IMG/VR virus record: IMGVR_UViG_3300035698_020096
Span: 16,174-80,173 of that record
From: a virus
Direction: 5' to 3' (one strand)
Length of the DNA stretch: 64,000 nt
Shown: piece after piece, positions 24,835 to 28,825 of the stretch
Numbering within the stretch: the first letter of the stretch is position 1
How the letters are laid out: every line of letters begins with the position of its first letter
The notes under the pieces: generated by a model
Database searches by the model: none
What the model was told of the DNA's origin: nothing
What the model saw: only the letters and a program-made list of their open reading frames with translations
Position numbers and translations under genes: made by a program

Positions 24835-26901
24835 ATGTCTTATTCTGATGGAACAGCTACTCTTAGAAGACAATGTACTGCTAATGAAGATAATAGAAAA
24901 TCCTTTCTTGCTACTCAATCTAATTTTAAGATTACTCAAGGAGTAGTAGAAGGTCTAGTTGGTATGGAGAGTCCTGAGCATATAGGTATGGTGTATAACA
25001 TCAGACTTATAGATACAGGACATTTAGTTAGATGTAGAAGATTAGTTAACTCTGCTTCATTTGATGGAGTAGGAGAATATAATCCTTTAGAAGAAGGAGA
25101 CCCAGTAGTAGTAGCTTTTAAAGAAGGTATGCTTCAAGATGGGATTATCCTTGGTTGTTTCTACACAGAAGGTACATATAAAGAGTTCTATATAGAAGGT
25201 CAAGGACTTAAACCAAGAGAAGTAAAGTCTAATTCTGTAAGGAATGTAGAGTTTAACCAACCTTCTATTCACCCTAATCGCGTGGCTCAACCCGATGCCT
25301 GGGTACATATTATTGGAGGCAAGGTAGGGCCATATAGAGACCCTGCTCTTACTGATGGTAGTACTAGTATGAAAGCTAATAGAAGACCTCCCCCAGCTTC
25401 TATTCAAATAAAGAATAAATTAGGAGATGTAGGTCAATGGGCTAAAGGAGATATCATCTTCTATTCAGATAGTAATATCATTCTTTTCTCTAGTCAAGAA
25501 GGGAAGTCTAAATGTAAAAGATTAAGAGAACTGGCTGAGTATTACCAACAAATGGTAGAGGAAATGGAGGTTTTTATAGGAGTACAAATTGAAGATGAAA
25601 TAAAACCAGCAGTATTTGAAGATGAAGCTGTTAAGGTTAGAAGCCTGGTTAATGCACATGAAGCTTCTGATAAATTTAATGATGAAGTTATAAATCCCGA
25701 ATCTTCTGAAACTAATACTGAAAACCCTGAATCTTCTGACTCAACTGACTATAACTATACAGATGACGATAGACGTAATAGAAGATATATTAATGGAGAA
25801 CCTAATATCGACTATATGATGTATGCCCCTTTAGTCGAATATCATCTTCCTCAATTAAAAGCAATGGCAGCTAAATGTAAAGAGTTAGCTATTACATGTA
25901 AAGAAGAGGCTATCAATCATGCAGGGGTTACTAATAGTAGACTAGAGGCTAGTCAAATAGTACAAGACGCTTGTTCTGCTTTATCCTCAGGGGGTCAACT
26001 AGATGATGAAAAGATAGAAGCATTGGCTGAAGGTCGTATATGTTTAAGTGGTGATGTAAGACATTACCCCTTTACTAAATGGAAGTTAGATAAATCTCAA
26101 GGTGTTGAAATAGAAGACTTAGCTTCTGACTCCGAGATTAAAGATGTATTAGTACATAAAGCTCTACTAGAAGCTTTTAAAAAGATGAGGGATGCTGCTC
26201 TATCTGAATCAGGGGGAGATATAGATTTAGCTATCGCTAGTGGGTTTAGAGACAAGGAATATTTAGATAAATATGGTTTAGACCCTAGAGATTGTGAATT
26301 ATTAGGAGGAGAGTTCCTACCTAAACCTGAACAATCTTTTGAGACAGGAGCTATAACTAATACGGGTAAAACAGGTTTAGTAGTTATAGACCCTGGACAT
26401 GGTGCGCCCGACCCAGGTGCAGTAGGTAATGGTATTGAAGAGGCTACTTATGTATTAGAGATAGCTAAATCTTTAGTTTCTACTCTTAACGGAGCAGGTA
26501 TTAAAACTCTATTAACCAGAGATATTGATGCTCAAGTACCTTCTCTTAGAGGAGCTGTAGAGTTAGCCACTAGTAATAATGCCAATCTCTTTGTTAGTAT
26601 TCATTGTAATGCTTTAGCTGGAGCTATTGCTACTGGATTTGAGGTATTTAGATATCATTCAGTTAGTGATACATTTGCAAATAATACAGTTAAAACTCTA
26701 GCTGCAAATCTTCCTACTCTTCCAAATAGAGGAGTTAAGTCTGGTAACTTCACCGTAATTAAAGCTTCCTCCGCTATCCCTTCTATTCTTGTTGAATTAG
26801 GTTTTATAAGTAATCCTAAAGAAGCAGAGTTTATGAAACAAGCCGATACTAAGTCTAAATATGTAACCGCACTAGCTCAAGCTATTATTAATACTTTATA
26901 G
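24835..26901 (+). CDS. Central spike-like protein: gp5/GpV OB-fold + N-half of VanY/M15B peptidase + Amidase_3
   Basis: PLEEGDPVVVAF..G....GIILGCFY (OB fold); EAFKKMRDAA...IASGFR (M15B N-part); VIDPGHG...E...FVSIHCNA...SILVELGFISN (Amidase_3). Confidence 0.85.
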   Translation: MSYSDGTATLRRQCTANEDNRKSFLATQSNFKITQGVVEGLVGMESPEHIGMVYNIRLIDTGHLVRCRRLVNSASFDGVGEYNPLEEGDPVVVAFKEGMLQDGIILGCFYTEGTYKEFYIEGQGLKPREVKSNSVRNVEFNQPSIHPNRVAQPDAWVHIIGGKVGPYRDPALTDGSTSMKANRRPPPASIQIKNKLGDVGQWAKGDIIFYSDSNIILFSSQEGKSKCKRLRELAEYYQQMVEEMEVFIGVQIEDEIKPAVFEDEAVKVRSLVNAHEASDKFNDEVINPESSETNTENPESSDSTDYNYTDDDRRNRRYINGEPNIDYMMYAPLVEYHLPQLKAMAAKCKELAITCKEEAINHAGVTNSRLEASQIVQDACSALSSGGQLDDEKIEALAEGRICLSGDVRHYPFTKWKLDKSQGVEIEDLASDSEIKDVLVHKALLEAFKKMRDAALSESGGDIDLAIASGFRDKEYLDKYGLDPRDCELLGGEFLPKPEQSFETGAITNTGKTGLVVIDPGHGAPDPGAVGNGIEEATYVLEIAKSLVSTLNGAGIKTLLTRDIDAQVPSLRGAVELATSNNANLFVSIHCNALAGAIATGFEVFRYHSVSDTFANNTVKTLAANLPTLPNRGVKSGNFTVIKASSAIPSILVELGFISNPKEAEFMKQADTKSKYVTALAQAIINTL

Positions 26902-26905
26902 ATAT

Positions 26906-28825
26906 ATGTCAGATAAGTCGAATAGATTAAAATCAGTAGCTCCAGTAGAGAATAGTGAACATTTAACAGGATTCTCAGTAGATGTAGTAGATAAGAAAGA
27001 CCCTAAGACCTTTGATTTAGATGGTAATTATAAAGCTAAAGCTTGGGAATGGGTTGAAGCTAATTGTGGAAAGTATGGCTTCGAGGTATCTTTCCCTAAA
27101 GGTAATAAGCAAGGACTTAATTATGAACCCTGGCATCTTAGATATATAGGACCTGAAGTACCCGCTGAATTACAATTAGTATTTGCTTACGCTAAATCTG
27201 GTGGTAATGCGGATGAAGCTACATTAGATAAGATATGTAAAGAGTCTCCTAAGACTGAATCTATAGAACATACTCAAGATGATATTAAATCTAGAACTGA
27301 TTTAGACTTAGATAGAATTGTTAAGACCCATAGTATAGAAGCTCTTACTGTTATTACAGGGAAAGGTACCCTAAATAGCAAAAAGGCAGCTAACTACGCT
27401 TTTAACGCTGATTCAGCTATAAAGCTACATATAGCCCATGCTGTTTATCAACACGTTAGTTCGTTAAACATTTCTATAGATACCAATATTACTGCTAGTC
27501 CTAATGTACTTGCGGAAAATGAACCTGAATACCCCTCGGGTAAATCCTTTTCTATTAAGTATTTAATTAATAAAATGTTAGAAGTAAGCTCTAATACAGC
27601 TACTAATATGTTAATTCAGTACATAGGTGGAATTTCTCTTGCTCGCAAAAAAGTAAACACCTTAGGTTATTCATTAACTCTGATTAAGGATTATATATCT
27701 CTGCCAGGTAAGGTGGTAGGGGATAACCCTGATGTGACTAATACCTCTTCTACGTTTGATATGGCTAAGGCTATATTTCAATTACTTAAGTTGAAACACA
27801 GTTTACAGTTAGATGTTTTAAACATAATTGTTAATTCTCTTAGCAAAGCAGAAGTACCTAAAGGTATGCGGAATATAAAATTTAATAAGATTGGATATAA
27901 TTCTAGAGTCAATGTCAATGTAGCTGTGTATCAAAATAGTAATGGTTACTTTATAATAGCTGCGGCTAACCTTACAGAATCCAGAGATTTTGAATTAACT
28001 AAGGTAATGTTAGCTACTAACGAGGTAACTCAAGCTATAGACAATTTAGAACTCGAAGGTATAGATTTTACTAAAGCTCCTGGAACTGCTTCTAGTGCTG
28101 CTTCTAGTGCTGCTGCTCCTCGTTCTACTACAGCTAAATCTCTCCCTGTATTAATGTATCACTCTATTGGTAATGGAGAAATAGATCCGAAATATGCTAG
28201 ATACGAAGTTACCCCTGAAAGGTTTAGAGGGCATATGCAGCATCTAAAGTCTTTAGGATATACAGCAGTATTAGCTAATAATATTATCTCAGGGGACCTA
28301 CCAGATAAACCTATCGTTATTACTTTTGATGATGGATGTTTAAATAATCTAACTAATGCAGTCCCAATAATGAGAGAATTCGGAATGAGGGGACTATTCT
28401 TTATTACTACTGATTGGTTAGGTAAAACACATCCCGAATATAAAGTCCCTATTATGAATAGTAATCAAGTAGCTCAGTTAGTAAATGGAGGGCACGAAGT
28501 GGGCTCACATAGTTTAAGTCATCCTAGACTATTGGATATATCCGAAGCCCAACTTACTAAAGAGTTAGTTGATTCAAAGAATATATTATCCTATATAGTT
28601 GGAGCTAATATTAAATCTTTCTCCTACCCATTTGGTAGAACTAACTCTTCCATAGTTCAAGCTACAGCTAAATATTATCAATTAGCTTATATGGCATTTC
28701 TGACTTCTGATAACCCAGGTAATAGTAAACATATGATAAACAGAGTAGAAATTGATGGTAAAGTAAGTGATTATGAATTAGAAATAAAGGCCCAGCATGA
28801 ACATAACTTCCTAAAGCTTACTTAG
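26906..28825 (+). CDS. C-half of VanY/M15B peptidase + serine beta-lactamase/PBP-like domain + NodB polysaccharide deacetylase
   Basis: SEHLTGFSVD...YEPWHLRY; SAIK, SSN and KIG motifs; PVLMYH, ITFDDG, HSLSH and FSYPFG motifs. Confidence 0.85.
   Translation: MSDKSNRLKSVAPVENSEHLTGFSVDVVDKKDPKTFDLDGNYKAKAWEWVEANCGKYGFEVSFPKGNKQGLNYEPWHLRYIGPEVPAELQLVFAYAKSGGNADEATLDKICKESPKTESIEHTQDDIKSRTDLDLDRIVKTHSIEALTVITGKGTLNSKKAANYAFNADSAIKLHIAHAVYQHVSSLNISIDTNITASPNVLAENEPEYPSGKSFSIKYLINKMLEVSSNTATNMLIQYIGGISLARKKVNTLGYSLTLIKDYISLPGKVVGDNPDVTNTSSTFDMAKAIFQLLKLKHSLQLDVLNIIVNSLSKAEVPKGMRNIKFNKIGYNSRVNVNVAVYQNSNGYFIIAAANLTESRDFELTKVMLATNEVTQAIDNLELEGIDFTKAPGTASSAASSAAAPRSTTAKSLPVLMYHSIGNGEIDPKYARYEVTPERFRGHMQHLKSLGYTAVLANNIISGDLPDKPIVITFDDGCLNNLTNAVPIMREFGMRGLFFITTDWLGKTHPEYKVPIMNSNQVAQLVNGGHEVGSHSLSHPRLLDISEAQLTKELVDSKNILSYIVGANIKSFSYPFGRTNSSIVQATAKYYQLAYMAFLTSDNPGNSKHMINRVEIDGKVSDYELEIKAQHEHNFLKLT

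Follow-up and report, generated by a model that had tools for sequence, protein, structure and literature searches.

Can one small catalytic domain be shared between two virion proteins, and if so, how did the division arise and what could it bring to the phage? This question is raised by a stretch of viral DNA of 64,000 nucleotides (nt; positions 16,174 to 80,173 of the IMG/VR virus record IMGVR_UViG_3300035698_020096, hereafter the window, meaning the whole stretch analysed), in which two neighbouring genes, open reading frames (ORFs) 1 and 2, hold consecutive, intact-looking parts of a single domain of the M15B/LdcB type (VanY/LdcB). This is a genuine gene fission inside a catalytic domain. 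A previous interpretation made from the letters of the DNA (the sequence-only reading) had described a VanY part followed by Amidase_3 and a stop in the ORF at 24835, and a second ORF starting 4 nt further on, at 26906, in another frame. This layout agrees with the ORF listing, the sequence and the Pfam matches, and the span assigned to the divided peptidase (26150-27150) fits the region from the N-half (26140-26298) through the C-half (26918-27151). The elements that carry the argument are the following:

24835..26901, + strand: ORF1 (688 residues, from the ORF listing), with the order spike oligonucleotide/oligosaccharide-binding (OB) domain, coiled/linker region, VanY N-half, linker and Amidase_3; its C-terminus is ...AQAIINTL, then TAG.
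26140..26298, + strand: VanY/LdcB N-half, ORF1 residues 436-488, comprising helix alpha1, one strand of the central sheet and alpha2, and ending at the conserved Cys487.
26239-26241 and 26248-26250, + strand: codons of Ser469 and Arg472 in the N-half, forming the Ser-x-x-Arg motif.
26899..26908, + strand: junction read from the sequence, with the TAG of ORF1 (26899-26901), the spacer ATAT (26902-26905) and the ATG of ORF2.
26906..28825, + strand: ORF2 (639 residues, +1 frame relative to ORF1), with the N-terminus MSDKSNRLKSVAPVENSEH and the order VanY C-half, conserved helical tail, Beta-lactamase2 domain resembling penicillin-binding proteins (PBP-like), linker and NodB deacetylase.
26918..27151, + strand: VanY/LdcB C-half, ORF2 residues 5-82.
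26960-26962, 26981-26983 and 27134-27136, + strand: codons of His19, Asp26 and His77 of ORF2, the zinc ligands predicted from alignments and comparison with LdcB of S. pneumoniae (SpLdcB).
27125-27127, + strand: codon of the catalytic-site Glu74 of ORF2, in the Glu-x-x-His motif.

The N-half comprises about 55 residues and the C-half about 80, of a whole domain of about 135 residues. Residues 5-82 of ORF2 correspond to positions 52-131 of the 132 in the VanY profile (PF02557), with a score of 66.9 bits (E 2e-18) that exceeds the Pfam gathering cut-off of 25 bits, and profile positions 1-51 are absent from this protein. In ORF1, residues ~439-476, VHKALLEAFKKMRDAAL...IASGFRDKEY, correspond to profile positions 3-37, a match that is weak when taken alone (13.8 bits, E 0.05). 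These pieces of ORF1 and ORF2 can be assigned to one domain because the related protein P0004 (853 residues) has a continuous VanY domain that is matched by both (P0004 residues 442-570, profile positions 3-130, 79.8 bits). P0004 combines in one chain the N-terminal two thirds of ORF1 (59-60% identity) and the VanY_C-Beta-lactamase2 part of ORF2 (45-48%); ORF1 aligns with it as far as ...YGL(D/G)(P/K)R(D/E)C, and ORF2 resumes at (N)RLKSVAP, which is LNLKLVAP in P0004. The alignment therefore bears out the earlier proposal of consecutive M15B parts with the Arg in the first and the zinc ligands in the second and, together with Pfam, the proposal that Amidase_3 hangs from the VanY loop at the break.

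The divided domain shows a VanY profile match above the cut-off, the zinc ligands with the Glu, and the Ser-x-x-Arg motif; what it does not have is a single continuous VanY polypeptide, since the chain stops at 26899-26901 and starts anew at 26906 in another frame. Ser469 and Arg472 are invariant in ORF1, P0004 and two relatives treated below (P0002 and P0003), and nearly invariant among 87 VanY sequences. In SpLdcB the equivalent roles belong to His153, Asp160, His207 and Glu204, with Arg120 in the Ser-x-x-Arg motif, and Arg120 lies 33 residues from His153 (PMC4087270), the same distance as that from the Arg to the first His in the unsplit P0004.

By sequence, the nearest solved relatives are the LdcB enzymes of B. 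anthracis and B. subtilis (4MPH, 4JID and 4OX3). The unsplit P0004 domain was modelled with AlphaFold2 from an 87-row alignment (mean predicted local distance difference test, pLDDT, 85.7; predicted template modelling score 0.81), and the best Foldseek matches of this model were the LdcB/VanY structures BaLdcB/BsLdcB (E 5e-9 to 1e-6), which places the unsplit homologue in the LAS/LdcB fold. The break corresponds to model residues 66-69, an irregular stretch between helices 52-57 and 68-74 (alpha2 and alpha3), and the block around it has the lowest confidence of the model (pLDDT 62 versus 91-98 in the neighbouring blocks). Beyond alpha1, one strand and alpha2, the rest of the fold is supplied by the C-half, which holds His19, Asp26, Glu74 and His77. 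Because the published LdcB fold is interleaved (PMC4087270), neither half would be expected to fold or work alone.

At the junction, the stop at 26873 closes the frame of ORF2 on its upstream side, and the first start codon beyond it is the ATG at 26906. The start context 'tagatatATG' is also found at the gene at 52168 of the same phage, and a Shine-Dalgarno sequence is absent from most genes in the window; the 4-nt distance between stop and start and the shared start context fit translational coupling. An Rfam scan of the junction for an intron, ribozyme or other RNA element gave no match at E <= 1.

Recurrence and conservation of the split

The same arrangement was found in relatives. P0002 (749 residues) is 80% identical to ORF1 and has the same ...AQAIINTL end, and P0010 (631 residues) is 66% identical to ORF2, with the first 19 residues identical and the start MSDKSNRLKSVAPVENSEH; the longest contig listed for each of them is a 7358-nt JGI contig. 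Moreover, the cut falls at this very residue in a second lineage too. Its first protein (P0003 and seven variants, eight in total) has the order spike, VanY_N, 'CEELGG' linker, DPBB_1 and stop, with DPBB_1, an RlpA-like lytic transglycosylase fold, in the place of the amidase, while its second protein (P0011 and 11 variants, 12 in total, of 379-381 residues) starts with M-A-D-(S/L)-QFNAPIENSEH and runs through Beta-lactamase2. One member of each set, P0043 and P0050, lists a 45,909-nt contig as its longest, which suggests that these two come from the same phage. The variants of the split sequences were drawn from Logan, ENA and JGI, and two further ENA contigs, besides the IMG/VR record, encode an ORF1 protein identical to ours. 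The split is natural, since it is seen again in assemblies made independently and in a second lineage, and the unsplit homologues that the sequence-only reading had called for as a check are P0004 and the more distant spike-VanY-Beta-lactamase2 proteins P0061 (874 residues), P0062 (944 residues) and P0068 (969 residues, with an extra Amidase_2).

Both split lineages have 'C-E-x-L-G-G' after the break, where the linker to the appended hydrolase begins, and 'M-(S/A)-D' as the new N-terminus, and neither motif occurs in the unsplit homologues. These shared flanking sequences hint at one fission followed by a swap of the appended domain. Trees of the N-part, the C-part and their concatenate do not separate our lineage, the DPBB lineage and the unsplit P0004, and they neither support nor reject the split forms as a monophyletic group (p-AU, approximately unbiased test, 0.14-0.27). 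No fused long form was found by a search for longer homologues, which is weak evidence, or among the top hits of the HMMER scan; searches for related loci in viral, metagenome and genome contigs and a blastn search against GenBank phages gave no match.

Both halves are conserved at the protein level well above the linkers at two depths of divergence. In the comparison with P0002/P0010, identity was 85% for VanY_N and 87% for VanY_C, with 92% for the spike, 56% for the linker (ORF1 residues 251-309, used as the unconstrained reference) and 48% for Beta-lactamase2; in the comparison with P0003/P0011, the corresponding values were 62%, 68%, 75%, 20% and 44%. VanY_C is the best-conserved part of ORF2, and in the eight variants of the DPBB lineage the VanY_N core has no substitutions and the linker behind it is highly variable. 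The Ser/Arg pair, His-x6-Asp and Glu-x-x-His are retained in every split sequence. The earlier impression that both halves look intact is consistent with these results, given that the motifs are complete, no stops or frameshifts interrupt them and neither half shows relaxed conservation.

The divergence from the closest relative is uneven along the locus, from about 92% identity in the spike to 48% in Beta-lactamase2, and P0002 carries a 60-residue insertion in the linker behind the spike domain, which together point to mosaic recombination inside the locus. Two other proteins have incomplete VanY domains. P0063 (871 residues, from one contig of 6945 nt) has the order spike-Beta-lactamase2 followed by a C-terminal match to VanY profile positions 2-77 only, with a degenerate 'SLLH...D', and may represent a second type of truncated or split VanY. 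P0150 (90 residues, from one contig of 2090 nt) is a candidate stand-alone VanY C-half of an unrelated lineage that starts with MKVSAPAGHSEH at the same loop.

The central spike and its cargo

The window is a structural module of a myovirus, and ORF1 is its central spike. The N-terminus of ORF1 belongs to PHROG 30576 'baseplate protein' (E 9e-30), and the protein shares 31% identity with gp094, the baseplate protein of Microcystis phage Ma-LMM01; a further match is the Microcoleus phage My-WqHQDG spike, itself a carrier of Beta-lactamase2. For an AlphaFold2 model of ORF1 residues 1-280 (pLDDT 80.9), the Foldseek matches with a probability of 1.0 were the baseplate spike of P1, the PVC and AFP central spikes, VgrG1 and T4 gp5, and the model also matched the R2 pyocin spike; the Phage_base_V profile scored under its cut-off on ORF1 (18.6 vs 23.8 bits). 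Directly upstream lie the genes for the portal, the major head protein, a sheath of 1000 residues and a tube-like protein, so ORF1 has both the OB fold of a central spike and its position after sheath and tube. The PHROG assignment, the similarity to Ma-LMM01 gp094 and the Foldseek matches agree with the tail-tip setting assumed in the sequence-only reading. To our knowledge, central spikes are trimers in all solved systems.

The C-terminal cargo of these spikes is highly modular among relatives. It is missing from Ma-LMM01 gp094 and consists of Beta-lactamase2 in My-WqHQDG, Amidase_3 in P0064, Amidase_2 in P0066 and P0071, Amidase_2 with a GDSL lipase in P0074, VanY with Beta-lactamase2 in P0004, P0061 and P0062, and Amidase_2, VanY and Beta-lactamase2 in P0068. 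In P0064 the conserved spike linker '...QLD.ED.E.L...EGK' runs straight into the terminal Amidase_3 without VanY_N; therefore, VanY_N is unnecessary as a mere connector between spike and amidase, and a module of the type 'linker-Amidase_3-stop' was available to this gene family. The remaining features of the locus are the following:

26299..26376, + strand: linker LLGGEFLPKPEQSFETGAITNTGKTG between the VanY-loop break and Amidase_3, delimited by alignment.
26380..26892, + strand: Amidase_3 (PF01520), ORF1 residues 516-686, 146.4 bits, profile positions 1-174 of 174.
27389..27964, + strand: Beta-lactamase2 (PF13354), a PBP-like serine hydrolase, ORF2 residues 162-353, 68.6 bits.
28295..28672, + strand: polysaccharide deacetylase (NodB, PF01522), ORF2 residues 464-589, 88.6 bits.
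28829-29299: Amidase_2.
29317-30564: lysozyme-like N-terminus and M23.

Amidase_3 has all of its expected motifs (DPGHG, IEEAT, SIHCNA and VELGF) and is 40% identical to the terminal Amidase_3 of P0064. Beta-lactamase2, which follows VanY in every member of the spike VanY family, shows S170-x-x-K173, S-S-N (228) and K-I-G (328) in ORF2; these motifs are kept in P0010, P0011 and P0061, and the serine motif is lost in the unsplit P0004 (DGFK). The NodB deacetylase is limited to the lineage of ORF2 and P0010. With VanY, seven wall-acting domains follow the spike N-domain within 24835-30564, distributed over four consecutive genes, and shorter versions of this locus are found in Microcoleus phage My-WqHQDG and in Ma-LMM01.

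Cysteines and similar linkers surround the VanY domain. The cysteines are Cys403 (26041-26043) and Cys487 (26293-26295) of ORF1 and Cys54 (27065-27067) and Cys111 (27236-27238) of ORF2; cysteines frame the spike VanY in 'GRIC' before it, 'RDCE' exactly at the break and 'DKIC' after it, all of which are also present in the unsplit P0004, P0061 and P0062, and an extra one ('EANCGKYGF') stands where canonical VanY has a near-invariant Ala. Disulfides between these residues could pin the N-half in place or hold both chains together. Similar linkers precede VanY_N (SGGQLDDEKIEALAEGRIC, 25984-26046) and follow VanY_C (SGGNADEATLDKIC, 27197-27238), and a linker of the SGGQLDDEKIEALAEGRIC type leads directly to Amidase_3 in P0064; such repeated modules may be recombination sites behind the shuffling of domains.

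Origin of the break and function of the halves

The following course of events is proposed for this locus. The ancestor would have been the central spike of a Ma-LMM01-like cyanomyovirus, ending in a VanY/LdcB zinc peptidase and a PBP-like domain within one chain. In a sub-lineage, a cassette of linker, cell-wall hydrolase and stop may have recombined into the surface loop between alpha2 and alpha3, breaking the chain, with Amidase_3 as the hydrolase in our lineage and a DPBB/RlpA-like domain in the sister lineage. The downstream remainder of the peptidase would then have gained its own ATG, four bases past the stop, and the translation of ORF2 would be coupled, following immediately after that of ORF1.

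The amidase segment does not stand out as foreign in composition, as GC content stays at 0.34-0.38 throughout the region. A search for flanking repeats or a target-site duplication around the inserted domain returned just short repeats that are probably due to chance. Among them is a direct repeat of 18 nt (83% identical), which pairs the codons before the break (LDPRDC, 26279-26296) with the start of Amidase_3 (IDPGHG, 26387-26404); it probably arose by chance, and its position is unlike that of a recombination scar.

Taking the conservation of the halves together with the interleaved fold of LdcB, we consider it probable that the two halves dock, restore the peptidase and tether the cargo of ORF2 at the tail tip, in keeping with the suggestion of the sequence-only reading that the enzyme would become active only on assembly and would double as a clasp. 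The C-half would dock on the spike-borne N-half by fragment complementation, neither half alone being expected to form either LdcB subdomain, and an active peptidase would be restored in which the substrate/oxyanion Arg comes from ORF1 and the three zinc ligands and the Glu come from ORF2. Docking would also give the trimeric spike a non-covalent hold on the PBP-like and deacetylase cargo, and the amidase would project from the loop at the break. A broader proposal, to which we give somewhat less than an even chance, is that the alpha2-alpha3 loop serves as a natural socket, in which trans-complementing halves rebuild the enzyme and dock swappable cargo on the spike, possibly with a cysteine lock.

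Several observations weigh against a restored and useful peptidase. The N-half by itself gives a weak Pfam match (E 0.05), and the spike VanY, in its split as well as its unsplit forms, differs from canonical VanY at several positions that are otherwise near-invariant, with Leu instead of the Gln after SxxR and without the Gly of A-P-G-x-SEH; therefore, even the unsplit spike VanY is a putative peptidase. Within the DPBB lineage, VanY_C shows no deficit of micro-variation, having 8 variable sites over 75 residues versus 18 in ~300 for the remainder of that protein, and one variant has SDH in place of SEH, with no ligand affected. In addition, six more wall-acting domains are encoded in the same 5.7 kb, and such redundancy could make the peptidase dispensable.

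These departures and the many other hydrolase domains at the locus would also suit an unlikely alternative in which the halves dock, the rebuilt domain is catalytically silent and it is kept to fasten ORF2 to the spike, and it can be added that relatives encode comparable effectors as proteins of their own, which need some means of attachment to the virion. However, the five residues of the catalytic site (Ser/Arg, His, Asp, Glu and His) are all kept in at least 20 split sequences as well as in the unsplit forms, and a structural role alone would not require catalytic residues.

It is more doubtful still that the insertion of the cassette destroyed the peptidase and left remnants that slowly decay while other hydrolases suffice. 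The redundancy of the wall-degrading domains, the failure to find a fused form and a micro-variation of VanY_C in the DPBB lineage that is no lower than elsewhere would all be expected of such relics, but the halves are far better conserved than true linkers at both divergence depths, the split persists between lineages that are just 52-56% identical, and the halves have no stops, frameshifts or motif loss, with VanY_C being the most conserved part of ORF2.

The third alternative, a programmed +1 frameshift or a bypass close to the TAG that would yield one chain with Amidase_3 as a true insertion in the VanY loop, appears very improbable. ORF2 does lie in the +1 frame, merely 4 nt past the stop, and the stop at 26873 in frame 2 leaves a 26-nt stretch for a shift; nevertheless, this stretch contains no known slippery or +1 motif and no Rfam element, each of the three split lineages has an initiator Met at the corresponding position, the context of the ATG is like that of other phage genes, and there was no long fused homologue among the matches listed. 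Finally, an assembly or sequencing artefact (indel or chimera), conceivable for a metagenomic viral contig, is effectively refuted, since two further ENA contigs encode the identical ORF1, relatives with 80%/66% identity have the same protein ends, the second lineage has many variants from Logan, ENA and JGI, and the halves are separated by a whole domain and a stop instead of a simple frameshift.

Significance and comparison with known systems

As far as we know, gene fission falls nearly always between domains. It is rare for a cut to pass through a single catalytic domain of ~135 residues and to be kept in two or more phage lineages. If the proposed docking is true, it would be a natural fragment complementation that serves virion assembly, and it would suggest a route by which separately encoded enzymes are loaded onto tail spikes, a question that concerns many phages and contractile injection systems; if the socket proposal holds, the mechanism of cargo attachment would be new for phage tails and other contractile injection systems. 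The two different domains inserted at one break point also illustrate the shuffling of spike cargo. In practical terms, a small natural split-protein tag or a split lysin may be possible, and annotators of phage genomes should bear in mind that a 'partial VanY' call can stand for one half of a functioning enzyme. Nothing relevant was returned by searches of the literature for a divided VanY or for a lysin of phage tails with a split catalytic domain.

The LdcB/VanY carboxypeptidases of family M15B (BaLdcB 4MPH/4JID, BsLdcB 4OX3 and SpLdcB 4OX5) share with the domain described here the fold, as modelled for the unsplit P0004, the His-x6-Asp...His, Glu-x-x-His and Ser-x-x-Arg motifs, and the Arg-His spacing of 33. 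Unlike these enzymes, the domain in the window is formed by two polypeptides cut between alpha2 and alpha3, has a second hydrolase at the cut and differs at several near-invariant residues; and whereas LdcB is a free or membrane-anchored bacterial enzyme, this one sits on a phage central spike. The unsplit spike-VanY-Beta-lactamase2 proteins have the same spike N-domain (73% identity in P0004), coiled region and module order, but they are single chains whose VanY loop holds neither Amidase_3 nor DPBB, and they lack the deacetylase.

The spikes of the T4 gp5, VgrG and P2 gpV type are likewise OB-fold spikes of contractile tails with a wall-degrading domain, and ORF1 resembles them, with its gene lying just after the sheath and tube genes. 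Here, in contrast, several different hydrolase domains are present, one of which ORF1 shares with the protein that follows it, and structural similarity to the solved spikes is confined to the OB fold and the part next to it (template modelling score 0.2-0.36). Division of peptidoglycan hydrolysis over two adjacent genes is also known from the split lysA of Gordonia phages and from multi-subunit or isoform endolysins; in the Gordonia case the cut lies between whole enzymatic domains and each product is a complete enzyme (PMC9671378), whereas here it passes through one domain.

The closest conceptual precedent is the ribonucleotide reductase of Aeromonas phage Aeh1, which was split into NrdA-a and NrdA-b by the homing-endonuclease gene mobE; these two proteins reassemble as a functional enzyme, and splicing of RNA or protein plays no part (Crona et al., 2010; PMC3045599). 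In both systems inserted DNA has divided a phage enzyme gene into two neighbouring genes. The Aeh1 insert is selfish and the enzyme is large and multi-domain, whereas here a useful domain is fused in frame to the first half, with a 4-nt spacer before the second gene, a single catalytic domain of ~135 residues is broken, and the products are virion proteins. Overall, the divided VanY/LdcB domain belongs with the enzymes encoded by genes in pieces, and what is new is that the cut lies in a small LAS-type peptidase, in virion spike proteins, with a useful domain at the break.

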